From a virus (lineage: Duplodnaviria; Heunggongvirae; Uroviricota; Caudoviricetes), in the IMG/VR virus record IMGVR_UViG_2671180676_000004, positions 2,122 through 66,121 of that record: a stretch of DNA of 64,000 nt. One strand, given 5' to 3'. Shown in pieces: positions 540-60,240 of the stretch (position 1 is the stretch's first letter; every line of letters starts with the position of its first letter). The position numbers were made by a program, and so were the translations under genes. The notes beneath the pieces were generated by a model. It was not told where the DNA came from, made no database searches, and saw only the letters and a program-made list of their open reading frames with translations.

Positions 540-965
540 ATGTTAGGTTTATTCAAAAAGAAAACTCGTAAAGCTGTTATCGAGGTCAAAAAAATGGAGA
601 ACCGAGATGCGGTTGAAGCCACCGTGTGGGGCGCGTACATGATCTCCTATGCCGATGGCACATGCGACGCAAAGGAAATTTCCATTCTTGAGAAAACAAT
701 TGCAGCTCTGCCTGCGTTTTCTCCGTTTGCTGGTGAGATTGCCCAAATGAGCGCCAATATCCGTGCTCAATACGAAGCCTCACCGCGCCGCGCTAATGCC
801 CAGGCTTTACGTGAGCTGGCTGATGTGGCCGGGACTAATGATGCAGTAGATGTACTGTGTCTGTGCCTTGATATTGCCGACCAAGACGGTATTGGCGAAC
901 AAGAAGAGCTGGCCCTGAAAAAGATCGCACAGGCGCTTCAGTTGTCACTGGATGCTTATCTCTAA
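540..965 (+). CDS. TerB-like small acidic protein (tentative)
   Basis: 141-aa ORF; helical acidic protein resembling TerB-domain proteins; preceded by palindrome 502-516 and AGGAAAGCAC immediately before ATG. Confidence 0.35.
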   Translation: MLGLFKKKTRKAVIEVKKMENRDAVEATVWGAYMISYADGTCDAKEISILEKTIAALPAFSPFAGEIAQMSANIRAQYEASPRRANAQALRELADVAGTNDAVDVLCLCLDIADQDGIGEQEELALKKIAQALQLSLDAYL

Positions 966-1123
966 TGCTTGAGAGATTCCGGCTTGTGACCGTCATTGCT
1001 CTTCTGGTGATGGCGGTGTTGGTGGATTTTACGGGAAAGATGATGTCTGTCATTTCTGATGGCGTCCTCATTGGTCTGGCGATCTACTTCGCTTATCCGC
1101 TAGTCCGTAAAGCAACGTGTTAA
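965..1123 (+). CDS. small membrane protein (52 aa)
   Basis: ATG overlaps previous stop (TAATG); one hydrophobic helix (VTVIALLVMAVLV); followed by hairpin at 1128-1145; below the ORF-track length cutoff. Confidence 0.25.
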   Translation: MLERFRLVTVIALLVMAVLVDFTGKMMSVISDGVLIGLAIYFAYPLVRKATC

Positions 1124-1262: not shown

Positions 1263-1832
1263 ATGTGCAAGAAATGCAAAGCGATAGCTGATGAACAAAA
1301 CGCCTTATTCGAAGAAATGGATGCTAATGAACTGGTCAAAATGTTAGCCATTCTTCGAGGAATAGAAGACGTTTCCATATTTGAGAGAGTGGTTACAGCA
1401 CTTAATTTTGAGTCCACCTTTGAAGAGCCAACTCAGGTTGTAGCTTTAGCACATCATTTCGGTGTTCATTATCTTGCTGAAAAAGAGCGCGCTGATAAGT
1501 TGCAGGCGACTTTGGATATGGTGAGCGAGACTCAACGAACTGATGACACTAACAAGAGTGAGGCGATTATTGCCAGCAAAGATCGTGAAATTGCTGGGCT
1601 TAAATCCTCTCTAACGATGTTGATGTCTGCGTTCAATCTTATATCTTCTCAGGCGGGTTATAAAATGCCATCACTAAACAGCGATGATCCGATGGCCGTT
1701 CGTCAGCTTTTGGGAGCAATGGCCGACCAACTCGACGACACAAAGAGTCGGCTTGAAGACATGATGCGTGAGTTAAGCCATCGACATAACCTCGCAACAC
1801 AGCCACACAAAGCCTTTCAAAGCTCTAATTGA
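1263..1832 (+). CDS. hypothetical protein
   Basis: 189-aa ORF; palindrome 1231-1245 and AGGAAAAACAC before ATG, the same upstream module as at 540 and 62395. Confidence 0.4.
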   Translation: MCKKCKAIADEQNALFEEMDANELVKMLAILRGIEDVSIFERVVTALNFESTFEEPTQVVALAHHFGVHYLAEKERADKLQATLDMVSETQRTDDTNKSEAIIASKDREIAGLKSSLTMLMSAFNLISSQAGYKMPSLNSDDPMAVRQLLGAMADQLDDTKSRLEDMMRELSHRHNLATQPHKAFQSSN

Positions 1833-1887
1833 TCTGATATGGCCGCATGATCGGCCATATTGTGTTGATAAAAAACAAGGATGAAAA

Positions 1888-2169
1888 ATGGCATACGGTA
1901 CAGGGATTTACAACAATAAAGGAATTAACGTTACTGGCTTCCTTACTCCTATTTTTTTTCTTGATCGATTTACTGCGTCATCAGGCTCTAAGACGTACTC
2001 CAATCCGCCACCGGGTAAATCGCTACATGCCGTGTGGTCATTGATGCCTCTTAACAACGACAACTACATTAATTTACCTGTTCCAACAGTTACTATTAAT
2101 GGAAATACGGTTAGTTGGTCAAATTTATATACGGGGCTTGGTTCTTACATATACACATACTGGGGATAA
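1888..2169 (+). CDS. hypothetical protein (low-GC cassette)
   Basis: 93-aa ORF in visibly AT-rich segment; Gly/Asn/Thr-rich, beta-type composition. Confidence 0.3.
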   Translation: MAYGTGIYNNKGINVTGFLTPIFFLDRFTASSGSKTYSNPPPGKSLHAVWSLMPLNNDNYINLPVPTVTINGNTVSWSNLYTGLGSYIYTYWG

Positions 2170-2171
2170 TT

Positions 2172-2786
2172 ATGTTCGGGATGTCAATTACTCAATCAGA
2201 TGGAAGTTTGTGGATGAGTCCAGAATTTACTCCGCAAAATCTGATTAATAAAGGGACAATGTCTACATCTAAAGGTTCTGTTTTTCAAACATCAATCCCA
2301 TCAAACAAATCATGCTTTTTCTTCATAAAAAGCAGTAATAAGGCGAACATGATGTTTATTCATGAGCATAGTAACGGATACAATGCTCTCAGATTGCATC
2401 AGGTAAATGGTAGCCCCGGAACAATAACAGTTTATGCTTTTTCTGATATGGTGTTACCACATTCTGGCTATGGCATTGCCATGTATAACAGCGCAGGCGC
2501 AATGGTGTATCACGGTGAGATGATGCCCCTTGATGCGAAACTTATCACTATTTCTGACCCTCAATTTACAATAGATATGGGGTATCCATGTGCGGTAATG
2601 CCTGCTATGGTTGGGGTATATAACTATAGACGAACCGATTACGACAGACCTGTCTATGTAACAATGACAGGTGCAACTGAAAACCAAGTATATAACGGTC
2701 AATGGTATTCCGGTAATGTCACATGGGATATTAAGAAGATTTATACAAACAAAATTCTGGTGATAAATACCTCCAAGTATGATTAG
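2172..2786 (+). CDS. hypothetical protein (low-GC cassette)
   Basis: ATG at 2172 two bases after preceding stop; 204 aa; Asn/Gly/Tyr-rich; followed by 14-bp-stem hairpin at 2856-2893. Confidence 0.35.
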   Translation: MFGMSITQSDGSLWMSPEFTPQNLINKGTMSTSKGSVFQTSIPSNKSCFFFIKSSNKANMMFIHEHSNGYNALRLHQVNGSPGTITVYAFSDMVLPHSGYGIAMYNSAGAMVYHGEMMPLDAKLITISDPQFTIDMGYPCAVMPAMVGVYNYRRTDYDRPVYVTMTGATENQVYNGQWYSGNVTWDIKKIYTNKILVINTSKYD

Positions 2787-2889
2787 CCAATGCCTTTATT
2801 TGAAGGATTGCCTGTTTATTTCTATTTAGTACCTTTTCATTTTTGAAATAATTGCACCATTAAACAAATCACTTCTTAATGGTGCAATT

Positions 2890-3366
2890 ATGAATACAGC
2901 CCTTTCCATCATCGACGATGCCAACTCAAACACTGCTATCGACTATCGGCAGGAAATGAACGTCATCCACGAAATTGTGGCCGAGTGCGAGAAAGAGATC
3001 GCCTTCATGTATCAGGTACACGACTTCGTTTATGGCGACGAACGCCACAACATGATTAATCGCCTGCTGAGACTAAACCATCGACCAGATGAAGATCGCT
3101 CGCGTTTAAATCGAGGTTGGTTGGATAAAGTCGATCTGGAATGGGTGAAACAGAATATTTGGGCCGAGTACTGGAGGAAGGTCACGGACATGACTAACGT
3201 TTTGCTGATCATGCCAGCTTCCCGTCGTGACGAGTGGTATGAGCAATTTATCGAGGGCAAGCAGGAAGTCATCAAAACTGACAGAACCGGCTATCAGATG
3301 AAGGTTAAAGAGTTCGTTGGTGTACCTGAGTTCAAAGTGGATACAGACATCCCTACGATGGCTTGA
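2890..3366 (+). CDS. hypothetical protein
   Basis: 158-aa ORF; convergent with hsdR, only about 58 bp between the stops. Confidence 0.4.
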   Translation: MNTALSIIDDANSNTAIDYRQEMNVIHEIVAECEKEIAFMYQVHDFVYGDERHNMINRLLRLNHRPDEDRSRLNRGWLDKVDLEWVKQNIWAEYWRKVTDMTNVLLIMPASRRDEWYEQFIEGKQEVIKTDRTGYQMKVKEFVGVPEFKVDTDIPTMA

Positions 3367-11375: not shown

Positions 11376-12476
11376 TCACACTGCGCGGAATGCGATCTCG
11401 CCAGGTATTACTTCGCCTTGCCAATACATTTGGGCAGCAACGCGATCTGCGAGGTCACGATAAATAGCCGTAAATTCGCTATCTGGACGACTAATAACGG
11501 TTGGTGTTCCGTTATCCAGATCTTCACGAAGAGAGATATGAAGTGGCATTTGGCCTAACAACTGCGTGTTGTATTTCTCGGCCAGTTTCTGTGCGCCACC
11601 GGTGCCAAAAATTGGCTCGTGATGACCGCAGTTACTGCAAATATGCACACTCATGTTTTCGACGATACCCAGTACCGGCACTTCGACTTTTTCGAACATC
11701 ACAATGCCTTTCTTCGCATCGATCAGCGCGATGTCTTGCGGCGTAGTTACCACAACCGCACCAGTTACAGGAATGTTCTGCGCCAGCGTCAACTGAATAT
11801 CACCAGTGCCCGGCGGCATATCGAGAACGAGATAGTCCAGATCAGGCCATAGAGTTTCCTGCAACATCTGCATCAGCGCCTTGCTGGCCATCGGTCCACG
11901 CCACACCATTGCATTGTCGTCGGTGACCAGATAACCAATAGAGTTGGTTGCCAGGCCATGAGACATGATAGGTGCCATGTGAGTACCGTCCGGTGAGGTT
12001 GGACGTTGGTTTTCCGCGCCCAGCATGGTTGGAATTGATGGACCATAGATATCGGCATCCAAAATACCAACTTTCGCACCTTCAGCAGCCAACGCCAGTG
12101 CCAGGTTTACCGCCGTGGAGGATTTACCCACGCCGCCCTTGCCTGAGCTGACGGCGATAATGTTCTTAACGCCATTAATGCCTGGTTGGTTTTTGACGCG
12201 CTTAAGCGTGGCAATGTTGTACGACAGCTTCCAGTCAATAGCCTTTGCGCCAGTGATACGGAGCAGATCACCACTACATTGCTCTTTCAGGTCTTCAAAA
12301 GGCTTATTCCACACGAAAGGCATGATTAGTTCGACATGCAGTGTGTCATCCATCAACGCAACATGGTGTAACGCTTTAAGCGTAGTCAGGTTGTGTTTCA
12401 GGGTTGGGTGCTGAAAATTAGCCAGCGTACCGGCTACCATTGCTCTCAGGGCATCCGGCGATTTGGACTCGCTCAT
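11376..12476 (-). CDS. apbC: Fe-S cluster carrier ATPase ApbC/Mrp
   Basis: 366 aa; P-loop GKGGVGKS; CxxC pair; divergent from metG as in Escherichia chromosomes. Confidence 0.9.
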   Translation of the reverse strand: MSESKSPDALRAMVAGTLANFQHPTLKHNLTTLKALHHVALMDDTLHVELIMPFVWNKPFEDLKEQCSGDLLRITGAKAIDWKLSYNIATLKRVKNQPGINGVKNIIAVSSGKGGVGKSSTAVNLALALAAEGAKVGILDADIYGPSIPTMLGAENQRPTSPDGTHMAPIMSHGLATNSIGYLVTDDNAMVWRGPMASKALMQMLQETLWPDLDYLVLDMPPGTGDIQLTLAQNIPVTGAVVVTTPQDIALIDAKKGIVMFEKVEVPVLGIVENMSVHICSNCGHHEPIFGTGGAQKLAEKYNTQLLGQMPLHISLREDLDNGTPTVISRPDSEFTAIYRDLADRVAAQMYWQGEVIPGEIAFRAV

Positions 12477-12633
12477 CCCGTCTCCTTTATTTTAATTTGC
12501 GCAATTGTCGCCTTGTAGTGTACTCCAGCTACGACATTTAATCATTTATGAGAAATGCTGTTATCACATGGCAGACATAAGGCCATTTTGTTACTATCAA
12601 GCCCCTTTTCACTACAAAGAAGTAATGCCTACT

Positions 12634-14667
12634 ATGACCCAAGTCGCGAAGAAAATTCTGGTGACGTGCGCGCTGCCGTACGCTAACGGCTCAATCCACC
12701 TCGGCCATATGCTGGAGCACATCCAGGCTGATGTCTGGGTTCGTTACCAGCGAATGCGCGGCCACGAGGTTAATTTCATCTGTGCCGACGATGCCCACGG
12801 TACGCCGATCATGCTGAAAGCACAGCAGCTTGGTATCACACCGGAGCAGATGATTGGCGAAATGAGTCAGGAACACCAGACTGATTTCGCAGGCTTTAAC
12901 ATCAGCTATGACAACTATCACTCGACGCACAGCGAAGAGAACCGTCAGTTGTCTGAGCTTATCTATACTCGCCTGAAAGAGAACGGTTTTATTAAAAACC
13001 GCACTATCTCTCAGTTGTACGACCCGGAAAAAGGCATGTTCCTGCCGGATCGTTTTGTAAAAGGCACCTGCCCGAAATGTAAAGCGCCAGATCAATACGG
13101 CGATAACTGTGAAGTCTGCGGCGCAACATATAGCCCGACTGAATTGATCGAGCCGAAATCGGTGGTTTCTGGCGCTACCCCGGTAATGCGTGATTCCGAA
13201 CACTTCTTCTTTGATCTACCTTCTTTCAGCGAAATGTTGCAGGCATGGACCCGCAGCGGCGCGTTGCAGGAGCAGGTGGCGAACAAAATGCAGGAATGGT
13301 TTGAATCCGGCCTGCAACAGTGGGATATATCCCGCGATGCGCCTTACTTCGGTTTTGAAATTCCGAACGCGCCGGGCAAATATTTCTACGTCTGGCTGGA
13401 CGCGCCGATTGGCTACATGGGTTCCTTCAAGAATCTGTGCGACAAGCGCGGCGATACCACCAGCTTCGATGAATACTGGAAGAAAGACTCCACCGCCGAG
13501 CTGTACCACTTCATCGGTAAAGATATTGTTTACTTCCACAGCCTGTTCTGGCCTGCCATGCTGGAAGGCAGCAACTTCCGCAAGCCGACCAACCTGTTTG
13601 TTCATGGCTATGTGACGGTGAACGGCGCGAAGATGTCCAAGTCTCGCGGCACCTTTATTAAAGCCAGCACCTGGCTGAATCATTTTGACGCTGACAGCCT
13701 GCGTTACTACTACACTGCGAAACTCTCTTCGCGTATTGATGATATCGATCTCAACCTGGAGGATTTCGTTCAGCGTGTGAATGCCGATATCGTTAACAAA
13801 GTGGTTAACCTGGCGTCCCGTAACGCTGGCTTTATCAATAAGCGTTTTGACGGTGTGCTGGCAGGCGAACTGGCTGACCCGCAACTGTATAAAACCTTCA
13901 CTGATGCTGCTGAAGTGATTGGTGAAGCATGGGAAAGCCGCGAATTTGGTAAAGCTATCCGTGAAATCATGGCATTGGCTGACCTGGCTAACCGCTATGT
14001 CGATGAACAGGCTCCGTGGGTGGTGGCGAAGCAGGAAGGACGCGATGCCGATCTGCAGGCGATTTGCTCTATGGGCATTAACCTGTTCCGCGTGCTGATG
14101 ACGTACCTGAAGCCGGTACTGCCGAAACTGACTGAACGTGCAGAAGCATTCCTGAATACAGAACTGACCTGGGATGGTATCCAGCAACCGCTGCTGGGCC
14201 ATAAAGTGAATCCGTTCAAGGCACTGTATAACCGCATCGATATGAAGCAGGTTGAAGCACTGGTGGAAGCATCCAAAGAAGAAGTGAAAGCCACAGCCGC
14301 ACCGGTAACTGGCCCACTGGCTGACGACCCGATTCAGGAAACTATCACCTTTGACGACTTCGCCAAAGTTGACCTGCGCGTGGCGCTGATTGAAAACGCA
14401 GAGTTTGTAGAAGGTTCTGACAAACTGCTTCGCCTGACGCTGGATCTCGGTGGTGAAAAGCGTAATGTCTTCTCAGGCATCCGTTCCGCTTATCCAGATC
14501 CACAGGCACTGATTGGTCGTCACACCATTATGGTGGCTAACCTGGCACCACGTAAAATGCGCTTCGGTATCTCTGAAGGCATGGTGATGGCTGCTGGCCC
14601 CGGCGGGAAAGATATCTTCCTGTTAAGCCCGGATGCTGGTGCTAAACCTGGCCACCAGGTTAAGTAA
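12634..14667 (+). CDS. metG: methionine--tRNA ligase
   Basis: 677 aa from ATG 12634 ([26 protein letters not shown]); HIGH-type and KMSKS motifs; zinc knuckle CPKC...CEVC; C-terminal tRNA-binding domain; intrinsic terminator at 14690-14713. Confidence 0.95.
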
Positions 14668-20897: not shown

Positions 20898-21123
20898 TGT
20901 GTAAACTGATTTTAAATCCCATTTCTACAAACGCTTTTAACATTAAAAATATATCAGCGTCGTTCACGTCTGCTTTTTTTCGCTCCTGGTCGCTCAATAA
21001 GTCAATTTTGCGCGTCGTTTCATCTATAAGCTCGACTGCGCGCCCAGCGTAACCAGCGATCCCAGCGATGCGATTAACATAATATTCATTATGGACGTTA
21101 ACGCCAGCGATAAGAACAAACAT
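20893..21123 (-). CDS. hypothetical protein (low-GC cassette)
   Basis: 76 aa; AAGGAG upstream on minus strand; bidirectional terminator-like hairpin 20864-20897 downstream. Confidence 0.35.
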   Translation of the reverse strand: MFVLIAGVNVHNEYYVNRIAGIAGYAGRAVELIDETTRKIDLLSDQERKKADVNDADIFLMLKAFVEMGFKISLHK

Positions 21124-21142
21124 GATTAAGCTCCTTAAAAAA

Positions 21143-21346
21143 TTAAATAGAATTTTGAAGTTTTCCGATTAATGCGCTTAAACGTAAGTATTCACGTTTA
21201 CGCTTGCAATCTCGCTTGCTGTTAAGCAAATCAGAAAACGTAAAATTTAATTGGTCGCGTTGCGCGATCAAATCATCGATTAATTCCAGTTTATAAGCGC
21301 GATACTTTGCGCGATATTCCGCGCGGATCTTGTCATAGCTGACCAT
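21143..21346 (-). CDS. hypothetical basic coiled-coil protein (low-GC cassette)
   Basis: Start taken at ATG 21346 (AAGGAG 8 bp upstream) rather than ORF-track start 21391, which would overlap hairpin 21364-21382. Confidence 0.35.
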   Translation of the reverse strand: MVSYDKIRAEYRAKYRAYKLELIDDLIAQRDQLNFTFSDLLNSKRDCKRKREYLRLSALIGKLQNSI

Positions 21347-21363
21347 TTTTAAAGCTCCTTTAA

Positions 21364-21382
21364 AGCGCCCACTATGGGCGCT
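21364..21382. terminator. hairpin with same stem as 20869-20887
   Basis: GCGCCCA-cta-TGGGCGC, downstream of minus-strand gene 21395-22045. Confidence 0.4.
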
Positions 21383-21394
21383 TGATTCCATTAA

Positions 21395-22045
21395 TTACGC
21401 TTTGAAAGCATCAGCTAAATAATTGTAGAAATCATTTTTAATGAAGCGATATTGCTGAGTACCAGCTTTCGCACTCCCAGCTCCTTTGACTTTTTCAACA
21501 AGTCCAAGACGTTCGCAAAGATTGATCAACTGGTTGGCTTGAGTATAGCCAGCGTCCAATTTAATTTCACACGCTTTTTTAGCTTCATTCATTAAATCGA
21601 AAACAGCGCCATTGGTGAACGTGTCGATCTCGTCGTTAATCATATCGATTAAAGCGAATACACGAGATCCAGACATATCAGCGATGGAATAAACGCATTT
21701 ACCAGATTTAATTGATTTAACCAGATAAACCAGTTTTTCCAGAGAATAACTATTAGTCATTGCATCACGAAAAAATACTTCTGGCGCTTGTTTGCTTGCT
21801 TTAATCGCATAGTAGAAAACAGAGCATAATTTTTCGTCTTCTACTGCGTTTACGACGTTGTTGATGAAGTAAGCAAGTTTAGTGGTCGCAGCTTGCATAT
21901 TTGCTTTGTCTGCTTTAGTGTGCGTACCATTTTTATAATGTTCGTTATATGTTTGAGTTGCCAGATCTGCTTTTTCGCGCAGTTCATCGGATACAATGGA
22001 AGCAGCTTCAATGATGGATTTTTTAGAAATGATAATGTTAGCCAT
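21395..22045 (-). CDS. hypothetical protein with C-terminal winged-helix-like segment (possible DNA-binding / replication-initiator-like)
   Basis: 216 aa; AAGGA upstream; C-terminal LINLCERLGLVEKVKG resembles a winged-helix recognition element; low-GC segment. Confidence 0.35.
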   Translation of the reverse strand: MANIIISKKSIIEAASIVSDELREKADLATQTYNEHYKNGTHTKADKANMQAATTKLAYFINNVVNAVEDEKLCSVFYYAIKASKQAPEVFFRDAMTNSYSLEKLVYLVKSIKSGKCVYSIADMSGSRVFALIDMINDEIDTFTNGAVFDLMNEAKKACEIKLDAGYTQANQLINLCERLGLVEKVKGAGSAKAGTQQYRFIKNDFYNYLADAFKA

Positions 22046-34326: not shown

Positions 34327-35247
34327 ATGCCAGAACAAAAGATGAAGATTACGGAAGAGGCATTTTCGGATTTTACGGGGCATATGTGCCGTGCCGGATT
34401 TACCAATTCTATCTCCGATGAACCTTTAACCGAGCGGCAACAAAGTCAGCTATCTGCTTGTTTGCAGGCGGTTCCCCTCTCCCAATCCGTAAACATAACC
34501 CCGGCTTCACCGTCAGTTTTGGTTGGGAAAACTGTTCAACTTAGTGCAGGTATTAGTATGGGTAAGAGTGCCAGTTCATTCACCTGGAAGTCAGCCAATG
34601 ACCAAATTGCAACCGTTAACGGCACTGGATTAGTAACTGGCGTAGCACCAGGCAAAGTAAAAATTACTGCAACTGATCAGGAAACCCAGCTTTCCGCTTC
34701 AGTGGAAGTCACCGTAAATCCGGTAGCCGTTCAATCCGTAACGGTAACGCCAGAATCAACGTCTGTTGAGAAAGGGAAATCAGTCAGTCTGAAAGCGAAT
34801 GTTCAGCCGTCAAATGCGACGAATAAGGCTGTTACCTGGTCTTCCAAAAATGAAGATAAGGCAACGGTAGACCAGAGCGGGAACGTTACTGGTGTAGAAG
34901 TTGGCACTGCGACGATTGAGATCGTTTCCCAAGATGGCAGCAAAAAGGCAACTGCAACGGTGGAAGTAACTGCGCCTGTTGTGGCTGTTACCGGCGTCGA
35001 AATCGACCCAAATAGCACAACCGTTGAGGCAAACAAAACTGTTCAGCTGACAGCAAATGTCGAGCCGGCAGGAGCCACAAATAAAACCGTTACTTGGGAA
35101 TCCAAAAATACCGAGTTTGCAACGGTTGACAGCGAAACCGGTGTTGTAACTGGTGTTGCGGCTGGTACTGCCACAATCGAGGTTACTACCCAAGATGGTA
35201 GCCACAAAGCGACAGCAACTGTAGAAGTTACTGCCGCACAGGAATAA
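34327..35247 (+). CDS. Ig-like (Big_2-type) domain protein, likely capsid decoration
   Basis: 306 aa with four tandem repeats of about 80 aa carrying the pattern VTGV..GTATIEV. Confidence 0.6.
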   Translation: MPEQKMKITEEAFSDFTGHMCRAGFTNSISDEPLTERQQSQLSACLQAVPLSQSVNITPASPSVLVGKTVQLSAGISMGKSASSFTWKSANDQIATVNGTGLVTGVAPGKVKITATDQETQLSASVEVTVNPVAVQSVTVTPESTSVEKGKSVSLKANVQPSNATNKAVTWSSKNEDKATVDQSGNVTGVEVGTATIEIVSQDGSKKATATVEVTAPVVAVTGVEIDPNSTTVEANKTVQLTANVEPAGATNKTVTWESKNTEFATVDSETGVVTGVAAGTATIEVTTQDGSHKATATVEVTAAQE

Positions 35248-35291
35248 CCGATATTGGGCGGCTTTCGCCGCCCAAGTGGAGAGAAAGCGTT

Positions 35292-35726
35292 ATGAAACCA
35301 GCAAAAATTGTTTTATTAGAACCGCAATTTTCCGGTTATTCGGGAATGCTGTGTGGCGTTCAGTTCGAGAACGGGGTATCCGTAGCGGAGTTGCCTTTTA
35401 TCGATCAGCAGAGGATTTGTGCTTCAATGCGAGCGTCAACAGTAGAGGGCAAAAATGTTTCTCCGTCTGCCGCATACAGTGATCGTGGTGAATTGACAGC
35501 AGACCTGATTACCGAGCCAGCAGCGCCTGACATTGTGCCAATGAAACGTGGGACACCAGATGAACCGGCCAAACAGATCCAGACTTTCACACGAGAAGAG
35601 CTGGAGTCAATTGCAGACAACGAAGGTATTGCCGGTCTACGAGTTATTGGTAATCAGGTTGGTGTCAAAGCGAAAGGAATTGTCGAAATGATTGACGGCA
35701 TCCTGAAAGCACAAGGCGGTGAGTAA
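35292..35726 (+). CDS. head-tail connector-region protein (hypothetical)
   Basis: position in morphogenesis operon only. Confidence 0.3.
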   Translation: MKPAKIVLLEPQFSGYSGMLCGVQFENGVSVAELPFIDQQRICASMRASTVEGKNVSPSAAYSDRGELTADLITEPAAPDIVPMKRGTPDEPAKQIQTFTREELESIADNEGIAGLRVIGNQVGVKAKGIVEMIDGILKAQGGE

Positions 35727-46496: not shown

Positions 46497-49400
46497 TTGA
46501 ACATGGAACAGTTCAAGAAGAAAAAGCTACCGCTGTTTATTGCCGGTGCGGGTGGTAAAAAAAGCAGCAAAAGCTCCAGCCGTACACCGGTTGAAGCCGA
46601 CGATACCGTAAATTCTCGTGCAATGGCCGCTATCCTCGATCTTCTTGGGGAAGGGGTAATTGGCGGCTTAGTAAATGGCGCAAGATCTATTTTTATCGAC
46701 GATCTGCCGATTGTAAATGAAGACGGTTCCTCCAACTTCAGCGGAATCACATGGGATTTTCGCGACGGTTCACAAGACCAGACTCCAATGTCTGGCTTTG
46801 ATTTCGTTGAAACGCCTAAATCCGTCAATATCCAGTTAAAAAAAACACATTATGTAACGGTTTCAATCGATAACGATGAAGCTGATCGGGTTCGTGTCAT
46901 CATGAAGTTTCCTTCTTTGCGAAGCATAGATAAAAAAACTGGTGACACGAACGGTACGACTGTTGAGTACAAGTTCCAGATAGCAAATGGCGACTCAACA
47001 TTTGTAGATGTGGTCGCGGAAGGTGAAAAAAGCGTTGGCATTAAGCTAACAGCAAAGAAGACCGGCGTTTATTACCGTAGCTACGAGCTGAAGCTGCCTA
47101 AGCCTGGACGCGCATACAAGGTTCGTGTAGTCCGTATTACCGATGATAACAGTAGCCAGTATCTCTATAACGATACATGGGTGGATTCAATCGGGGAAAT
47201 TGTCGATACACCGATGAACTATCCAAACTCTGTTTTGGTTGGATTGAAGGTAAACTCTGAGCAATTCGGCAGCACCATGCCATCTCGCTCTTATCTGGTG
47301 CGTGGCCTAAAAATTCGAGTACCTTCAAACTATAACGAGTCCAGTAACACTTACGCTGGGGTATGGGATGGTACTTTTAAGCTGTTGTCTTCTTCGAACC
47401 CCGCGTGGATTCTCTTTGATTTGCTGACCAATGCTCGATATGGCCTTGGTCAGTATGTGTCGGAATCTATGATTGACCTTGGCCAGTTGTACCAGATTGG
47501 TCGATATTGTGACGAAGAGGTCGATGATGGCTTTGGTGGCAAAGAGAAACGCTTTGCAATCAATACGCAGATCACCAGTCGACAGGACGCATACCGGCTA
47601 ATTCAGGATATTGCTGGAGCATTCCGCGGCATGGTGTTTTGGGCTGGTGGGATGGTTAACATCATGCAGGATAGCCCATCAGATCCGGTAATGATGTTTA
47701 CCAACTCCAACGTCAAAGATGGATTGTTTACCTATAAAGGTTCTGCGCGTAAAGATCGCCCATCCGTTGCGCTCGTAACCTACAACAACAAGGAGGACGG
47801 TTATAAGCAAAACATCGAGTACGTCGAAGATCAGGACGCAATGCGCCGTTATGGTGAGCGTAAAACAGAAGTCGTAGCATTTGGCTGTACAAGCCGAGGG
47901 CAGGCTCACCGAGTTGGTTTGTGGCTTTTATATACCGCCAGAATGGAGTCGGATGTAATTACATTTACTGCCGGCTTAGACGCGTCATTTCTGATGCCTG
48001 GTGAAACCGTTCTGATTCAGAACAAATATCGCGCAGGCAAACGTAACTCAGGTCGAATTGTGGCGTTTACCAAAAACAGCGTCACACTCGATGCGCCTGT
48101 GTCGTTAGCCAAAGGCGGCTGCTTTATTCGAATACTGAATAAGGAAGGCAAAATCGTTGAACGCGATGTTCTTGAAACTGGCGAAAATATAACAAAAGTT
48201 ACGTTTTCAAAAGCCCTGTCTTCGGCTGAAACGCCTGTTTTGAACGGCGTCTGGACTATTACAGAACCAGACCTCGAACCTATGCGCGTTCGCATCGTTA
48301 ACATCGCGCAGGGGGAAACGCCGGGTAGCTTTGACATCACCGCTGTTGAGAACAATCCGTCTAAATATGAGGCGATCGACAATGGTGCAACGCTTATCCC
48401 TCAAAATACGACGGTATTGGACCCGACTTACTCCAAGCCGTCTAATTTGCAAATCACCGAAGGGACTTATCTCTCAAGCCCTGGCAACCTGTCAGTAAAA
48501 CTGACTGCAACATGGGAAGGGAAATCTCCAGAGTATTGGATCAGTTGGCGACGTTCTGATGAAAACAATGTATCGAACTGGCAATCGGCGCGTGTAACCG
48601 AAGAGCAATACGAAATCGTTAATGTTGCGGAGAATGGACGCTACGACTTCCAGCTGTATGCGGTTTCATTCAACGGTAAAAAAACAGAGATTATCAGTAC
48701 CGTTTATCAGGTGCTGGGCACAATGACACCGCCAGATGCCCCAACGTCATTAACGGCCGTTGGAGACTATCGTAATGTGATACTGAATTGGGTTAATCCA
48801 GATTCGGTAGACCTTGATCACATTAATGTTTACGCATCCCAGACCAACAATCTGGATACGGCGAAACTGATCGCAGAGTCTGCAAGCACCACCTTTACAC
48901 ATGCTGGTCTTGGGGATAGCGAAACGTGGTATTACTGGGTTCGAGCATCGAACAAGCGAGGTATGTTAAGTCCTCCGAACTCAAACTTGGGTACAGAGGC
49001 GACAACTCGCGATGTACTGTCGTTCCTGACTGGCAAAATTACATCTTCCGAGCTTGGTCAGGCTCTGCTTGAGGACATCAACAGCAAAGTCTCTCAAGAA
49101 GCAGTTGACGAGTTAAATGAGCATATCAACCAGAGCGTCGAATCTTTGGAGGGGTCGGTAAACGACGTTAAGGAAGATATAGCTGAATTAGATAAGCAGT
49201 TCAGCGATAACCTCGCGGATTTTGAAATAAAATTCAACGAGCGTAGCGATGCTTTGGAGAACGCACAAACCGAGCTTAAAGGTGAGGTTTCGGCAACGAT
49301 CGACAAGGTCAATGAAGCGTTTGAAAAAATTGATGCTACTGATGCTGCAATTGTTGAAATCGAAAACACCGTATCTGAACACGATAAAGCTCTCGCTAAT

Positions 49401-51230
49401 ACAGTCGAGGCAATAAAGGCTGCAAGAGATGAAGCGGCGGCTCTTATTGCTAAGGAAAGCGAGGCTCGTGTTGAAGGCGATGCTGCAAACGCTAAACAAT
49501 TGGAAGTGTTGCAGTCAACGGTAGAGGAAAGCTCCGCTGCCGTTGAAGAAATGAAAAAGACGGTTGCAGAGGTCGATCGTGCAAGTGCAGAACTGACTAC
49601 GAACATTGAGGCTTTGGCCAAAACAAATATTGACCTGGCTCTTCGTCAAGATGAAGACCAGCACAAGCAGATGGTCAATAACGCGAAGATCGCAACAACA
49701 CAGAAAACCTTTGCTGATGATATGTCTGCAATGGCCACGAAGGTTGAGGAAATTCGCGTAGAAATTGGCGAAGACATTAAGGCCAGTATTCTGGAAGAGT
49801 CCACCGCTCGTGCCGATGGCGATGAAGCGTTGGCAAAGCGTGTCACTCAGCTGCAATCTAAGTTTGAAGGAGATATCAGCGCGGCGATTAGTACAGAGCA
49901 GGAGGCTCGTACATCTGCCGATGAAGCTCTGACGACACAGATCACTCAGCTTGAGTCGAAAGTAAGCAACGATATCGTCGCAGCTATTAAGGAAGAGCAA
50001 GAAGCCCGAGCAACGGAAGATTCGGCTCTGGCAAGCCAGATCACCCAACTTCAGGCAAAGGTTGATGATGATATTTCTGCTGCAATACGTAGTGAGCAGG
50101 AGGCCCGAGCAAGCGGGGACTCTGCGTTAGCCAAACAAATAAACCAGCTTCAGTCAAAGGTTGACGGTGATATATCCGCGGCCATCACTCAGGAGCAGGA
50201 GGCCAGAGCAAGTGCTGACCAGGCGCTCTCACGAGAAATTAACAGCCTGCGAGCACAAACCGGAACTGATATTGCCGCAGCGGTTGCTGTAGAGACAAAA
50301 GCAAGGACTGATGCCGATAGTGCATTGTCTACCCAGATTACGTCTCTTACAGCAAAAGCTAATGATCTCGAGGCGTCTCTTGCCAGAGAAACAACGGCTC
50401 GTGCAGATGGTGATACCGCTTTAACAAAAGAGGTTTCAAGTTTAAAAGCACAGACAGCGAAAGATATTAGTGCGGCCGTTGCAGTTGAAACGCAGGCTCG
50501 AACTGATGCTGACTCGGCGTTGTCGTCTCAGATCACCAAGCTGACCTCTCAATACAAAGAGGATATTAAAGCGGCTGTAGCAACCGAAACGAAAACGCGT
50601 ACAGAGCAAGATGCTGCATTGGCGACTCAAATCACAAACTTAGAGTCTCAAACGGCAGCCAACATTTCCGCGGCGGTCACAACTGAAACGACAGCGAGAA
50701 CGCAGGCAGATAATGCTCTGAGTGGGCGAATCGATACTCTGAAAGCAGAGGTGAATGGAAATACCGCGACAATTCAACAGCAGGCAACAGCTATTGCTGA
50801 TACCAACAAAAAAGTGTCAACCGCGTGGACGTTGAAAATGGAGACTTCAACGAGCGGAGGGCAGAAGTATATTGCCGGTATTGCGCTTGGTATTGACACC
50901 ACTGGGCTATCTCAGTTTTTGGTTCAGGCGGACAGGTTTGGTTTGGTCAACTCTGTTAACGGGAAGATCACAACGCCATTTGTTATCGAAAACAGTATCG
51001 CCTATATGAATGGAGCGTATATCAAGGATGGCACAATCACCAATGCAAAAGTAGGCGATCTGCAATCTACCAATTTTGTTAGCGGTAGATCTGGATGGCG
51101 GTTCGGCAAAAATGGAACGCTTGAGATCAACGGTAATAGCGGCGGCAATGGGCGATTGGTTATAAATGGTCAGCGGATTGACGTTTATGACGATAACAAC
51201 GTCCTACGAGTAAGAATTGGCCGTCTGTGA
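46497..51230 (+). CDS. host specificity / central tail fibre protein (gpJ-like)
   Basis: 1577 aa; position after I; internal array of about ten 33-aa repeats; C-terminal distal domain. Confidence 0.85.
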   Translation: MNMEQFKKKKLPLFIAGAGGKKSSKSSSRTPVEADDTVNSRAMAAILDLLGEGVIGGLVNGARSIFIDDLPIVNEDGSSNFSGITWDFRDGSQDQTPMSGFDFVETPKSVNIQLKKTHYVTVSIDNDEADRVRVIMKFPSLRSIDKKTGDTNGTTVEYKFQIANGDSTFVDVVAEGEKSVGIKLTAKKTGVYYRSYELKLPKPGRAYKVRVVRITDDNSSQYLYNDTWVDSIGEIVDTPMNYPNSVLVGLKVNSEQFGSTMPSRSYLVRGLKIRVPSNYNESSNTYAGVWDGTFKLLSSSNPAWILFDLLTNARYGLGQYVSESMIDLGQLYQIGRYCDEEVDDGFGGKEKRFAINTQITSRQDAYRLIQDIAGAFRGMVFWAGGMVNIMQDSPSDPVMMFTNSNVKDGLFTYKGSARKDRPSVALVTYNNKEDGYKQNIEYVEDQDAMRRYGERKTEVVAFGCTSRGQAHRVGLWLLYTARMESDVITFTAGLDASFLMPGETVLIQNKYRAGKRNSGRIVAFTKNSVTLDAPVSLAKGGCFIRILNKEGKIVERDVLETGENITKVTFSKALSSAETPVLNGVWTITEPDLEPMRVRIVNIAQGETPGSFDITAVENNPSKYEAIDNGATLIPQNTTVLDPTYSKPSNLQITEGTYLSSPGNLSVKLTATWEGKSPEYWISWRRSDENNVSNWQSARVTEEQYEIVNVAENGRYDFQLYAVSFNGKKTEIISTVYQVLGTMTPPDAPTSLTAVGDYRNVILNWVNPDSVDLDHINVYASQTNNLDTAKLIAESASTTFTHAGLGDSETWYYWVRASNKRGMLSPPNSNLGTEATTRDVLSFLTGKITSSELGQALLEDINSKVSQEAVDELNEHINQSVESLEGSVNDVKEDIAELDKQFSDNLADFEIKFNERSDALENAQTELKGEVSATIDKVNEAFEKIDATDAAIVEIENTVSEHDKALANTVEAIKAARDEAAALIAKESEARVEGDAANAKQLEVLQSTVEESSAAVEEMKKTVAEVDRASAELTTNIEALAKTNIDLALRQDEDQHKQMVNNAKIATTQKTFADDMSAMATKVEEIRVEIGEDIKASILEESTARADGDEALAKRVTQLQSKFEGDISAAISTEQEARTSADEALTTQITQLESKVSNDIVAAIKEEQEARATEDSALASQITQLQAKVDDDISAAIRSEQEARASGDSALAKQINQLQSKVDGDISAAITQEQEARASADQALSREINSLRAQTGTDIAAAVAVETKARTDADSALSTQITSLTAKANDLEASLARETTARADGDTALTKEVSSLKAQTAKDISAAVAVETQARTDADSALSSQITKLTSQYKEDIKAAVATETKTRTEQDAALATQITNLESQTAANISAAVTTETTARTQADNALSGRIDTLKAEVNGNTATIQQQATAIADTNKKVSTAWTLKMETSTSGGQKYIAGIALGIDTTGLSQFLVQADRFGLVNSVNGKITTPFVIENSIAYMNGAYIKDGTITNAKVGDLQSTNFVSGRSGWRFGKNGTLEINGNSGGNGRLVINGQRIDVYDDNNVLRVRIGRL
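49780..50750. repeat. tandem 99-bp (33-aa) coding repeats inside gpJ-like gene
   Basis: about ten units of the form E(Q/T)(E/K)AR(A/T)..D.AL..QIT.L..K...DI.AA(I/V), mostly exactly 33 aa long. Confidence 0.75.
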
Positions 51231-51323: not shown

Positions 51324-54300
51324 ATGTGGTACAGGGAAGGTACTATCACATTTACACAGGGTAGCAATACTCTGGTTGGGGCAGGGACAGCCTGGAACGT
51401 AACAGCTAATGGTGTGTTGCCGGGGATGATCGTCATTGGCCCCGACAATAAGCTGTATGAGATCAAGCGCGTAATAAGCGATACGAATATTGTTCTCTCA
51501 GAACCTTATACCGGCGAAACTCAGTCTGAGGTTCCGTGCCGAATCATTACGACCTATGAAGGCGACTTAACACAGTTTAGCGCGCGCTTTACAGCACTAA
51601 TGTCGCGTATGTCGGCTGATTCCAAGTCTATGCGCAGTTGGTTGACTGCTCTGGATGAGGTGACAATCGAGCGTGAAGACGGTACAGAAGTAACCGTTAA
51701 GCCGCTAATGCAGATCGTCAACGAGCACAACGAAAACGTTGAGTGGTATAAAAATAACACTGACGCGATTGATGCTGCTGGCGACAAAGCTCGTGAGGCG
51801 GCGGCCAGTGCTGCCGCAGCAGCAGAAAGCGCCAATACCGCTGGAGAAAAAGCCTCTCAAGCGTCTCAAAGTGCATCCGCTGCGGCATCCTCACAAAGTG
51901 CCGCAAGTGCGAGTGCAACTGCTGCGAAAAAATCTGAAACGAATGCCGCAGCGTCACAACAATCAGCAGCCACTTCTGCATCCACCGCGACCACGAAAGC
52001 GTCAGAAGCTGCCACCTCAGCCCGGGATGCGGCGGCCTCAAAAGAGGCAGCGAAATCATCAGAAACGAGCGCAGCCTCGAGCGCCAGTAATGCCGCTTCC
52101 TCGGCAACGGCGGCAGGAAATTCCGCGAAGGCGGCAAAAACGTCCGAGACGAACGCCAGGTCTTCTGAAACGGCAGCGGGACAGAGCGCCTCGGCTGCGG
52201 CAGGCTCAAAAACAGCGGCTGCGTCGTCTGCCAGTGCCGCGTCAACAAGTGCCGGGCAGGCCTCAGCCAGTGCCACCGCCGCCGGAAAATCGGCAGAAAG
52301 TGCCGCATCGTCTGCTTCAACAGCCACAACGAAGGCTGGCGAAGCCACTGAACAGGCCAGCGCAGCAGCGAGGTCTGCTTCCGCAGCGAAGACATCCGAA
52401 ACGAACGCGAAAGCGTCGGAAACCCGTGCAGAATCCTCAAAAACGGCAGCCGCATCGTCCGCCAGTTCGGCAGCGTCATCGGCATCATCGGCGTCTGCTT
52501 CAAAAGATGAGGCGACCAGACAAGCGTCCGCAGCGAAGGGCAGCGCCACGACAGCATCCACGAAAGCAACAGAGGCGGCAGGCAGTGCGACGGCAGCATC
52601 TCAGAGCAAAACTGCTGCTGAATCCGCTGCGACCCGTGCGGAAGCTGCTGCTGATCGTGCTGAAGAGATTGCCGGTGCAGTTGCGATGGAAGATGCAAGC
52701 CTTACCACCAAAGGTGTTGTGAAACTTAGCAGTGCTGTCGACAGCACCAGTGAATCTTTAGCCGCGACACCAAAAGCAGTTAAGACCGCATATGATAATG
52801 CTGAAAAACGACTACAGAAGGATCAGAATGGTGCTGATATCCCCGACAAGGGCCGCTTCCTGAATAACATTAATGTTTACAGCAAAGGTGAAGTGGATCA
52901 GAAAAAGGGGATGCGATACGTTGTGGTCAATGCCCCGGCGGGTGTCCAGGAAGGTAAATATTATCCGTTAGTGATAAAAAGGAATGACAGCCATCGGGCA
53001 TCCCGCGTTGTCATTTCAACGCCAAGTCGCACAGCTAATCACAGAATGAATAACTGTGAGTTTAATGGTTTTGTTTGCGCAGGCGGCTGGACGGACCGGG
53101 GTAGCTATGCCTGTGGTATGTTCTGGGCTTATTCATCATCGGAACGCGCTATTCATTCCATTCTGATGAGTAATAAAGGCGATACCGTAGACAGCGTATT
53201 CTATATAGAAGGTGGGGCATTTCCCGTAGAGGTCTTTTTAGAAGAAGGACTTTCTGTTACTGCTCCTGCTTCTGATTATGTTGTTGCTGAAACGACTTAT
53301 AAATTTGGCGCAACTGATCCTTATTCTGAATCAGTTGCGGTAAATTTAATTTTAGATTTTAAACAAGGTAATGGATTTTATAGTTCGTATCCTGTTTTGA
53401 GTAAGTCAGACATTAGCGGTAATAAGGTTTACGCTAATGATGAAGTTATTGTCCGTAGTCAGAATGCGTTAAGGATGATTGCTGGCGATTACGGTGTCAT
53501 ATGGCGAAATGATGGAGCAAATACTTACTTGCTCATGACTGATAAAGGCGACCAGTACGGTGGCTGGAACGGTCTTCGACCATTTGCAGTAAATAACGCA
53601 ACAGGTGAAGTGACGATCAATACACCACTTAATTCTCCAAAAGGGGTTAAGGGGAACTCTGATACAGCTACGAAACTTCAGACTGCAAGAAAAATATCCG
53701 GTGTTCCATTTGATGGCTCTACTGATATCACTTTAACCGCCGCGCATGTTGCCGCTTTCGCAAGAAGAGCAACAGGGTCATATGCTGATGCTGATGGCGG
53801 CGTGCCGTGGAATGCTGAATCTGGTGCTTATAATGTAACTAGAACGGGCGACAGTTATATTCTTGCCAACTTTTATACTGGTGTAGGTAGTTGCCGTACG
53901 CTTCAAATTAAGGCTCACTATAAAAATGGTGGGTTGTTTTATCGTTCATCTCGCGATGGAAGTGGTTTTGAAAGTGGTTGGGAGCAGGTTTACACGACTG
54001 GATTTAGACCTCAGCCGGCTGATATAAACGCACCAACCGCTGCCGCCGGATGGTTAAATAGTGGTAACGGAACAGCATTTACGACTGCTCAGTTTATAAC
54101 GTGGCTAAATAATCAGGGTGCATTTTCAAACAAATATTGGATTGCACGGTGCTCATGGACTTACGCCAACAATAATTATATAGACGACACTGGATGTGGC
54201 AGGATCGATCTATCTGGTTCCGTGATTGAGGTGTTTAGTAATAAGTCAACAAGCCACTACACTATTCGTGTTACAACGACAACAACATCGGGCCATGGTG

Positions 54301-59454: not shown

Positions 59455-60174
59455 ATGCTCTACAAATATATTGGAAGTGAAGATTCGCAAAAAGTGTTAC
59501 GTAACCTCAAACGGTTTGTAGAGGACGGCACTATCTCTGCTAGCGCACCTTCTTCATTCAACGACCCATCAGAGTTCAAAGTTTCGATAACGATGGGAGG
59601 TACAGAAGTGGAGCGCCGGAAACACTTTGAAGACAATGGATGTAAGGATTTTTCCTTTGAAGACTGGGATGCTGTAGCTCCTGAAGCTGCAAAATCGTTG
59701 GCTGTGGATTTGCGGAAAGAATCATTAGGGGCTTTTGGTGTGGTGTGCTTGTCACCAAACGAAGATAACATCTTGATGTGGTCACATTACTCAGTGTCGC
59801 ATAAAGGTTTCTGCATAGGCTTTGATGATGATTTTGTTACCTCTATTGAGGGGTATCACAGCTTTGATAATGTGAAATATATACCTTCTGTTCCCGTGTT
59901 CGATGAAGTTACAGATGAGTTTAAGGTACTTTTTGATAAGCTCTTTTTCTACAAGCACGAATGCTGGAAATATGAGGAAGAACAAAGGGTTATTACTAAA
60001 AAAATAGGCGCTCAGGCATTTGATAAGAAATATATTAGAGAGATCATTCTTGGACATAACGTTTCTCCTGAAGTAGAAGAATATGCCCGGACACAGCTAG
60101 ACACGAGCATCGAGGTTTACAAAATGAGTACACCTGATGATGGTTATCTTCTTGTCAAAGAAAAGCTGAAGTAG
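59455..60174 (+). CDS. hypothetical protein (low-GC cargo gene 1)
   Basis: ATG 59455 after terminator hairpin; motifs FNDPSEF and MWSHYSVSHKGFCIGF; family not confidently recognised (possibly DUF2971-like). Confidence 0.4.
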   Translation: MLYKYIGSEDSQKVLRNLKRFVEDGTISASAPSSFNDPSEFKVSITMGGTEVERRKHFEDNGCKDFSFEDWDAVAPEAAKSLAVDLRKESLGAFGVVCLSPNEDNILMWSHYSVSHKGFCIGFDDDFVTSIEGYHSFDNVKYIPSVPVFDEVTDEFKVLFDKLFFYKHECWKYEEEQRVITKKIGAQAFDKKYIREIILGHNVSPEVEEYARTQLDTSIEVYKMSTPDDGYLLVKEKLK

Positions 60175-60240
60175 CTCCAGACTTTCCTCAAATGATTATG
60201 TTGGGCGCTTTTCTTATTGAACTGGTTAGTGAGGCTAATA

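Follow-up and report, generated by a model that had tools for sequence, protein, structure and literature searches.

Two adjacent open reading frames (ORF1 and ORF2) near the left end of a 64,000-nucleotide (nt) stretch of viral DNA probably encode the receptor-binding tip of the central tail fiber of a phage-plasmid, and this tip module appears to have been acquired horizontally and to be encoded ~44 kb away from the fiber gene, J. The stretch, hereafter the window, covers positions 2,122 to 66,121 of IMG/VR record IMGVR_UViG_2671180676_000004 (Caudoviricetes). From our own analysis, this reading draws on family membership, the pairing and natural fusion of the two genes, their fold class, their distribution, their single copy, and the conserved tip of J. 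From the work of others, it draws on the presence of an ORF2 homologue in virions of phage phi24B, the density seen at the needle tip of that phage, and the correspondence between locus type and receptor specificity. We infer the docking on J, the respective roles of ORF1 and ORF2, the timing of expression, and the receptor. The features on which the argument turns are as follows:

1888..2169, plus strand: ORF1, 93 amino acids (aa); predicted small beta-sandwich (immunoglobulin [Ig]-like) partner protein; PHROG 557.
2172..2786, plus strand: ORF2, 204 aa from its ATG; predicted all-beta, hand-like protein and putative receptor-binding protein (RBP) proper; PHROG 425.
46497..51230, plus strand: protein J, central tail fiber/tip, 1577 aa; C-terminal Phage_Tail_Tip (knife-like) domain at ~50769-51227.

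The 2.2 kb around the two-gene cassette are 100% identical to the Escherichia coli plasmid pUTAK-6-1 (111 kb). This region matches 238 E. coli records, and 244 of the 246 matching places lie on plasmids of ~107 to 116 kb. The nearest phage records are Escherichia phages CMS-2020a, Cyrano, and PhiR41_1, with Salmonella phage SSU5 more distant, and on the strength of these matches we take the window to be part of an SSU5-like phage-plasmid of E. coli. It holds a complete siphovirus morphogenesis module. Both ORFs are intact in the window, and the cassette is present in 119 Escherichia/Shigella phage-plasmids of PLSDB, at an identity of at least 97% in 112 of them.

ORF1 and ORF2 are separated by 2 nt, and each is preceded by a Shine-Dalgarno-like sequence (AAGGA at 1877-1881 for ORF1 and GGGGA before 2172 for ORF2), which confirms the closely spaced gene pair proposed in an earlier reading made from the sequence alone (the original prediction). 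That reading had assigned the two proteins to no recognizable family. We observe strong PHROG matches for both: ORF1 to phrog_557 (E value [E] 4.7e-29), named “outer membrane protein,” and ORF2 to phrog_425 (E 5.7e-72), named “membrane associated protein” and placed in the category “moron, auxiliary metabolic gene and host takeover.” Yet neither belongs to a Pfam or NCBIfam family, and searches of ORF1 and ORF2 against Pfam, NCBIfam, PADLOC, and PDB sequences returned nothing above threshold. An HMMER search of 1.84 billion representatives recovered 114 clusters only. The richness in Gly, Asn, and Tyr that had also been pointed out holds for ORF1 (10.8% G, 11.8% N, and 8.6% Y) and is only mild in ORF2 (7.8, 7.4, and 6.9%, respectively).

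At the nucleotide level, the cassette is 76% identical to the virulent Nonagviruses JenP1, JenP2, and BRET and ~65% identical to Shiga toxin (Stx)-converting podoviruses. ORF1 shares 76% identity with JenP1 gp22, 65% with its Stx-phage homologue, and 52 to 57% with Bas04_0024 and Bas06_0025, while ORF2 shares 82% with JenP1 gp21, 61 to 62% with 933W p65, 39% with Bas04_0023, and 42% with Bas06_0024 (204/204 residues). A profile built from close relatives of ORF2 (A1) recovers Bas04_0023 at E 5e-68, Bas06_0024 at E 5e-67, and 933W p65 at E 2e-105 (Z = 1.84e9), and the ORF1 profile recovers the small partners in Bas04 and Bas06 at E 1e-32 to 1e-35. Relatives of ORF2 at ~40% identity are found in many T1-like phages.

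The homologous pairs occupy comparable places. The JenP1 pair comes directly after J and is encoded on the other strand, where it has an AT-rich upstream stretch and a terminator hairpin of its own. In 933W, it follows p63, the gene of a 422-aa tail (needle) protein, and precedes lom. In Bas04 (FritzSarasin) and Bas06 (KarlJaspers), the locus is directly downstream of J in convergent orientation; its products are a lipoprotein of 89 aa (lipobox LTGC), an ORF1-like protein of 91/92 aa, and an ORF2-like protein of 204 aa. Bas04 and Bas06, whose BtuB dependence was determined experimentally, are the only BtuB-dependent small siphoviruses among Bas01-22 (S5 Table, PMC8594841). Genus-matched FhuA phages (Bas05 and Bas07), a YncD phage (Bas10), and an LptD phage (Bas01) have different alleles at this locus.

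The pairing of a ~90-aa gene with a ~205-aa gene is kept in every context examined (JenP1, Stx phages, Bas04/06, and the loci L008 and L009). In addition, about 10 natural fusion proteins of 307 to 325 aa are ORF1-like over their N-terminal ~95 residues and ORF2-like over the rest (hhalign 90.8%, P 1.2e-6). Because the pairing is invariable and natural fusions exist, the comparison indicates that the products of ORF1 and ORF2 act together. On one metagenomic contig (L007, 1-1477), a 316-aa ORF1-ORF2 fusion comes directly after a Phage_Tail_Tip gene ends; next in order are a Cor-like lipoprotein in convergent orientation and a fiber of 597 aa with a Caudo_TAP assembly protein. This arrangement is a compact, fused version of the RBP locus.

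Such loci have been described in the literature. In the BASEL collection (PMC8594841) and in a recent preprint (10.64898/2026.04.02.716166), the variable locus lying downstream of gpJ was shown to correspond to the terminal receptor specificity, and its main product has been called the bona fide RBP, attached non-covalently to the J tip and accompanied by accessory proteins and exclusion lipoproteins. The correlation between allele and receptor is without exception in BASEL (PMC8594841) and extends to 64 T1-like phages (10.64898/2026.04.02.716166). Matusiak et al. 2025 (PMC12309495) studied both families in the Dhillonvirus JLBYU60, the Traversvirus phi24B, and Littlefixvirus; they showed the “outer membrane” and “membrane associated” names to be wrong and described a small Ig-like protein together with a “hand-like” beta protein of ~23 kDa. 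In their AlphaFold2 (AF2)-Multimer models, the hand-like protein caps the knife-like C-terminal domain of the spike and contacts FhuA or BamA (PMC12309495). In phi24B, the ORF2 homologue gp54 (204 aa) was detected in the structural proteome, extra density is visible at the needle tip in negative stain, and a gp54/gp55 heterodimer has been proposed as the BamA binder (10.64898/2026.04.10.717836).

The Stx-phage homologue of ORF1 (933W p64, phi24B gp55) is annotated with 75 aa. We observe that the family alignment favors 92 aa from a TTG start, which restores the conserved N-terminal YG.aIYN motif (L003 5000-5278; L011 6768-6995). The annotated 75-aa start may be relevant to the non-detection of gp55 in the phi24B proteome. 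The start of SSU5_024, the ORF2-like gene of SSU5, is also probably earlier than annotated (L018 6572-7216).

The original prediction had considered a receptor-binding or adhesin-like beta fold compatible with the composition of the two proteins. This view gains from the AF2 model of ORF2 (pLDDT 94 [predicted local distance difference test]; predicted template modeling score [pTM] 0.88), which is all beta, as well as from the position of the family at a receptor-specificity locus and the recovery of the Stx-phage homologue from virions. Foldseek comparison of the ORF2 model with the PDB gave no significant fold match; hits to PCSK9 had template modeling (TM) scores of <0.3 and are meaningless. 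The fold recurs in 20 uncharacterized phage proteins of BFVD and is phage-specific. Direct reading of the ORF1 and ORF2 sequences found no signal peptide, lipobox, or hydrophobic/transmembrane helix in either protein, in contrast to the lipoproteins Bas04_0025 and SSU5 Cor. We also considered ORF2 as two ORF1-like copies, an idea with limited support: ORF1 aligned to the halves of ORF2 at hhalign probabilities of 16 to 56%. The two proteins have in common an N-terminal motif of ~27 residues (hhalign 84%), and MAFFT repeatedly places ORF1 over the N-terminal ~85 residues of ORF2.

J itself ends, at its extreme C terminus, in the Pfam domain PF09327 Phage_Tail_Tip (E 7e-42), without a receptor-binding extension. 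The same domain ends JenP1 J, 933W p63, and the gene preceding the natural ORF1-ORF2 fusion. The C-terminal motif of J, ...GWRFGKNG...VYDDNNVLRVRIGRL, is common to JenP1 J, the J proteins of Bas04 and Bas06, and 933W p63, the common C-terminal pattern being “...GWR..K.G...V.D.NG.LRV.IGRL.” The Phage_Tail_Tip domain of J would offer the docking site for ORF1 and ORF2.

Comparison with SSU5 bears on the same point. Over its last 80 aa, the J tip differs from that of SSU5 J at 4 positions. SSU5 has a module of its own after its tail fiber and adhesin genes, consisting of SSU5_023 (ORF1-like, E 2e-9), SSU5_024 (ORF2-like, E 4e-36, ~25% identity), and a Cor lipoprotein (SSU5_025), and this module is only ~25 to 30% identical to the cassette. 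In the window, no ORF1- or ORF2-like gene is present downstream of J, where a tail fiber gene (51324-55613) and then a holin gene (55804) follow. Six-frame profile searches of the whole 111-kb plasmid, in which the SSU5 module was detected as a positive control, found no second ORF1- or ORF2-like gene. Given the 4 differences in 80 positions, the divergent SSU5 module, and the single copy on the plasmid, a conserved J tip appears to be served by different modules. The tail fiber gene next to J can be described as follows:

51324-55613: 1429-aa tail fiber ORF with a long Ala/Ser-rich repeat.

In this fiber region, RefSeq records two separate genes, one for a 975-aa tail protein and one, convergent with J, for a “hypothetical protein” of 227 aa. 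We examined the 227-aa gene (~51866-52561, minus strand) as a candidate RBP locus and rejected it as an antisense artifact inside the tail fiber ORF.

The horizontal origin of the cassette is supported by three kinds of comparison, namely its absence from the same site in SSU5, its atypical composition and codon usage, and its occurrence in unrelated phages. The segment concerned is the following:

1812..2875: inserted or replaced segment with the cassette, absent from the same site in SSU5.

In blastn comparison, homology to SSU5 stops at approximately window position 1811 and restarts at 2876, the first base of the right arm of a hairpin, and in SSU5 itself the gene SSU5_094 is directly followed by the methyltransferase gene SSU5_095, with no cassette between them. 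Nucleotide homology to JenP1 is limited to window positions 1882-2786. The guanine-plus-cytosine (GC) content is 38.8% in the cassette and 37.9% in the segment 1840-2890, compared with 46.3% in the window (z = -2.1 and -2.5; the lowest 2.4% and 1.2% of same-size windows, respectively). The markedly AT-rich segment that had been proposed is therefore real, yet the dip is moderate, and two other spots are equally low. GC at third codon positions (GC3) is 0.376 in ORF1 and 0.368 in ORF2, against 0.480 +/- 0.065 in 39 reference ORFs. The codon-usage divergence (Jensen-Shannon) of the cassette is 0.087, against 0.048 +/- 0.013, a value reached by 0 of 14 same-length reference gene pieces. Checked against the rest of the window, both GC and codon usage are thus atypical, with the clearer signal at the codon level. 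The original prediction had inferred a recent acquisition; its horizontal nature is upheld, while “recent” does not apply to the replicon, as the cassette is so well conserved in 112 of the 119 matching phage-plasmids.

The two equally AT-rich segments lie at ~20900-22000 and ~59700-60600, and the lowest-GC3 ORFs of the window are at 21395-22045 (minus strand) and 60241-61413 (plus strand). These segments may represent further horizontally acquired accessory genes.

Taken together, we propose the following model. ORF2, as a monomeric, all-beta, hand-like protein, would cap the trimeric Phage_Tail_Tip C-terminal domain of J, and ORF1, a small Ig-like beta-sandwich translated just upstream, would be its partner or adaptor. 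Because neither protein has a signal peptide, the complex would assemble in the cytoplasm. On the virion, it would bind a host outer-membrane protein, giving terminal receptor specificity and irreversible adsorption. The module would be portable and act in trans on the conserved J tip, so that adjacency to J would not be needed. The Escherichia/Shigella lineage would have gained it horizontally at a variable accessory site between the homologues of SSU5_094 and SSU5_095, and the cassette would replace the ancestral-type module (SSU5_023/024 plus Cor) that SSU5 has kept after its tail fiber genes.

Several observations weigh against this model. The cassette is ~44 kb from J and not directly downstream, as is the convention for J-tip modules; adjacency to J is, in our view, a positional convention without being a functional requirement. 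The genes around the cassette are of accessory or early type (TerB/TciA-like, DUF3927, methyltransferase, and type I restriction-modification [R-M]), surroundings in which a moron would be more usual than a structural gene. A scan for sigma-70 promoters gave no useful result near the cassette, and a T7-like phage without a J has a related pair in its early region. If docking were specific, the J tip and the module would be expected to covary, and no such covariation is seen between SSU5 and the window, the J tips being near-identical despite a module identity of ~25 to 30%. A single-chain model of ORF1 plus ORF2 (20-sequence alignment) reached a pLDDT of 61 and a pTM of 0.46 and gave no interface; ORF1 consists of beta strands only in this low-confidence model. 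The case for receptor binding in the family as a whole is built on correlation, proteomics, low-resolution density, and structure prediction. A last point, the divergence of the C-terminal third of ORF2, concerns the receptor itself.

With >30% identity over >99% coverage to both Bas04_0023 and Bas06_0024, ORF2 falls within the BtuB family as the preprint on T1-like phages delimits it. Identity to the BtuB-associated proteins is, however, unevenly spread, at 48 to 52% in residues 1-142 and 19% in residues 143-204, the latter being 63% identical to 933W p65 and 84% identical to JenP1 gp21. Since the C-terminal third is only 19% identical, BtuB is not transferable as the receptor, and a BtuB specificity of ORF2 is doubtful on this comparison. 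Candidate receptors are BamA, by analogy with the Stx-phage protein, and BtuB, by analogy with Bas04 and Bas06. If residues 143-204 carry specificity, BamA, the genetically defined receptor of phi24B, would be the better guess.

The large proteins of the FhuA-type loci (Bas05, L014 5051-5956; Bas07, L015 4510-5488) are reached by the A1 profile at E 2e-4 and 2e-3 (Z = 1.84e9) and by a broad ORF2-family profile at 2e-36 and 5e-28, and the small proteins are reached at E 3e-5. This suggests that the BtuB- and FhuA-type proteins of the RBP locus are detectably homologous, though the two RBP families have been described as unrelated (10.64898/2026.04.02.716166).

A broader reading, which we consider possible at somewhat short of an even chance, is that the tip module is a free-standing, trans-acting host-range cassette, placeable anywhere and able to arm any fiber that ends in Phage_Tail_Tip, with a single RBP superfamily as its corollary. 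Such a cassette would explain why one J tip goes with two modules that are ~25 to 30% identical in SSU5 and the window. It would also explain why the cassette is common to Nonagviruses, Stx podoviruses, and phage-plasmids and why pairs occur in non-tail regions. If this holds, the BtuB-, FhuA-, and possibly LptD/DUF6453- and YncD-associated RBP families would belong to one superfamily that has both split and fused architectures.

Phage-plasmids of the SSU5 type occur commonly in E. coli and Shigella, often with resistance genes, and host range determines how far such genes travel. These elements have had no RBP assigned hitherto, and ORF1 and ORF2 are the likely, misannotated tip RBP and host-range determinant. 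If the Stx-type C-terminal third sets specificity, the receptor of these E. coli phage-plasmids carrying antimicrobial resistance would be BamA, an essential protein. RBP genes that can sit far from the tail operon would also matter for genome-based receptor prediction and for host-range engineering. The misleading names “outer membrane protein,” “membrane associated protein,” and “C39 peptidase” would be corrected.

The accessory setting invites another explanation, in which the cassette is a moron or lysogenic-conversion cassette whose products are membrane-associated accessory factors made from the plasmid prophage, for example for superinfection exclusion or envelope modification, and not virion parts. 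The PHROG category of phrog_425 and the membrane names of the pair fit such a role, as do the low GC, the variable accessory region adjoining TerB-like genes and an R-M insertion, the JenP1 pair, which runs opposite to the tail genes and has an AT-rich promoter region and a terminator to itself, and the related pair in a T7-like early region. We nevertheless find it unlikely, given that ORF1 and ORF2 have none of the signal peptides, lipoboxes, or hydrophobic helices by which true exclusion proteins (Bas04_0025, SSU5 Cor, and Rtp45) are recognized and that the computed membrane affinity of their homologues is low (PMC12309495 Table 1). Moreover, phi24B gp54 is found in the virion proteome, the allele type tracks receptor specificity, and PADLOC gave no match.

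It is equally conceivable that the two proteins are structural or assembly proteins of the tail tip without specificity, ORF2 capping the J tip and ORF1 serving as a chaperone, while the receptor is read by J or by the 1429-aa side fiber. The near-identity of the J tip in SSU5 and the window despite their different modules would be expected on these terms, and the predictive k-mers of RBP models map to core domains, away from interfaces (10.64898/2026.04.02.716166). What makes this improbable to us is that locus alleles correlate with the terminal receptor in BASEL and in 64 T1-like phages, and that the analogous LptD-type protein (the Rtp44/Oekolampad RBP; 9rpt_C) binds LptD directly, as seen by cryo-electron microscopy (PMC12685063). 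In addition, the N-terminal two thirds of ORF2 are conserved between clades and the C-terminal third is exchanged, as would be expected of a specificity determinant.

The displaced position of the cassette, the lack of an adjacent exclusion lipoprotein, and the disruption of the neighboring methyltransferase gene in the window could also mark a non-functional hitchhiker, a captured fragment of the RBP locus of another phage that has no role. This is very unlikely, because the ORFs are intact, have good ribosome-binding sites, and are at least 97% identical in 112 of 119 plasmids, and because the element, with a J that has no receptor-binding domain, contains no other module of this kind. Finally, ORF2 as a C39-family cysteine peptidase domain protein, suggested by the PGAP product name for WP_000467662.1 in several plasmid records and by the invariance of C48, H114, and C140 among close homologues, is rejected with near certainty, since no C39 or other peptidase match appears in Pfam/NCBIfam even at E <= 1, the confident ORF2 model is made of beta strands where C39 peptidases have a papain-like alpha+beta fold, and C48 and H114 are not kept across the wider family. 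We thus retain the receptor-binding tip as the preferred reading of ORF1 and ORF2.

Two hairpins were observed around the cassette:

1836..1861, plus strand: possible leaky terminator, a 10-bp hairpin (ATATGGCCG.. / ..CGGCCATAT) 3' of the upstream 189-aa gene.
2848..2891, plus strand: hairpin at the right-hand junction of the insertion; perfect 16-bp stem, loop of 12 nt.

The left hairpin has a weak T-tract (RNA fold -15.7 kcal/mol, z = -2.9) and gave no call in the terminator scan. For the right hairpin, the original prediction had placed a perfect 14-bp stem at 2856-2893. The hairpin is genuine and the coordinates were off, the 14-nt arms lying at 2850-2863 and 2876-2889, and the RNA stem extends to 16 bp (2848-2863 / 2876-2891; -19.1 kcal/mol, z = -6.1). 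It had also been regarded as the element that closes the cassette, which is true in position only: the right arm is the leader of the backbone methyltransferase gene, also present in SSU5, and it reaches into the AUG at 2890, so that the first two bases of this downstream start codon, A and U, are paired in the stem. Window positions 2851-2869 are the exact reverse complement of the SSU5 methyltransferase leader ATTTGTTTAATGGTGCAAT (L004 3761-3779). The full hairpin is present in all three cassette-bearing SSU5-like loci examined (L001, L005 of Cyrano, and L006), SSU5 has the right arm only, and the JenP1, Stx, and Bas loci have no such hairpin. Because SSU5 homology restarts at 2876, the left arm matches in reverse complement, and the hairpin occurs in this pattern, we read it as the product of a duplication, in inverted orientation, of the methyltransferase leader at the junction with the insertion; it neither belongs to the mobile module nor terminates it. 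As an intrinsic terminator it was rejected, with its AT-rich stem, no T-tract, GAATACAG following inside the next ORF, and no call in the terminator scan. Most plausibly, it blocks translation initiation of the methyltransferase gene or insulates this gene.

The wider surroundings of the cassette vary between relatives. Just 5' of the cassette region, window 540-1123 encodes a TerB-family protein (P1 TciA-like) and a DUF3927 protein (P1 TciB-like), where SSU5 has an ORF6N antirepressor instead, and the region is therefore a variable accessory one. The DUF4942 DNA methyltransferase gene measures 1686 bp in SSU5 and Cyrano and is reduced in the window to a 158-aa N-terminal remnant at 2890-3366, because a complete type I R-M system (hsdR, hsdS, and hsdM; minus strand, 3425-~9500) has been inserted. 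We also observe a palindromic motif with ~13 occurrences in the window (26 strand matches versus 1.3 expected), located as follows:

501, 1230, 14750, 14801, 17608, 18092, 18995, 19759, 23912, 28874/28899, 58333, and 62361: motif GAAAACAA-N-TTGTTT(TA).

The motif usually lies 20 to 35 nt 5' of the points where early or accessory genes have their start codons, in SSU5 also 5' of the methyltransferase gene, and none is found directly upstream of ORF1. It probably serves the phage-plasmid as a repressor operator or a promoter element. Host-like housekeeping genes are present at ~11376-14667, namely apbC (iron-sulfur carrier) and a full-length metG (methionyl-tRNA ligase), adjoining a homologue of DNA polymerase III theta and an S24 peptidase. 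Outside the window, the same plasmid (NZ_CP157149.1) carries a tRNA cluster (Ser, Thr, Tyr, and Asn) at 34762-35319, for amino acids that are abundant in tip and fiber proteins, and the trimethoprim resistance gene dfrA51 at 427-903.

Among the closest known systems is the tip module of JLBYU60, phi24B, and Littlefixvirus (PMC12309495), with the same two families, gene order, close spacing, and misleading names as the cassette and a partner tail protein that ends in the same Phage_Tail_Tip/knife-like domain as the J of the window. It differs in belonging to the late operon, where the spike or needle gene immediately precedes it, whereas the cassette is ~44 kb away in an accessory region. Unlike these spike/needle phages, the element studied here has a long siphovirus-type J (1577 aa), and the BamA specificity of phi24B is not simply transferable. 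The BtuB allele of Bas04 and Bas06 encodes homologous small and large proteins (52 to 57% and 39 to 42% identity over the full length), and the cassette is horizontally mobile between phage groups; in contrast to that allele, it has no adjacent exclusion lipoprotein, lies away from J, and is only 19% identical in residues 143-204. The SSU5 module (SSU5_023, SSU5_024, and SSU5_025 [Cor]) is of the same kind, in the same type of phage-plasmid and with a near-identical J tip, but its identity to the cassette is only ~25 to 30%, it follows the tail fiber and adhesin genes, and it includes Cor; in the phage collection, this type of module was found only in SSU5 itself.

The Rtp44/Oekolampad RBP (DUF6453; 9RPT), with its exclusion lipoprotein Rtp45, follows the same RBP-locus logic as an all-beta protein held non-covalently on the J tip. 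Its representative Bas01_0028 belongs to DUF6453 (E 2e-113) and is homologous to PDB 9rpt_C (E 4e-44). A weak common motif links ORF2 residues 77-138 to DUF6453 positions 187-247, the broad ORF2 profile scores 24 bits against Bas01_0028 residues 177-243, and Foldseek relates ORF2 to 9rpt_C with a probability of 0.96 at a TM score of 0.32. Homology is not established, since ORF2 scores 15.4 bits against Pfam DUF6453 (E 0.012), below the gathering cutoff of 25 (positive control Bas01_0028, 379 bits), hhalign gives a probability of 12% over 42 columns, and ORF1 has no match to DUF6453. The Rtp44/Oekolampad RBP is also a single protein of ~311 to 327 aa, unlike the two-protein cassette. T5 pb5/Llp is alike in principle, as a separate RBP on the tip of the central fiber with a cognate exclusion lipoprotein, and pb5 differs from ORF2 in its unrelated sequence, its length of ~640 aa, and its locus. 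The kind of module represented by ORF1 and ORF2 is therefore already known, recently and mostly by prediction, and what is new here is its host element and its unusual genomic position.

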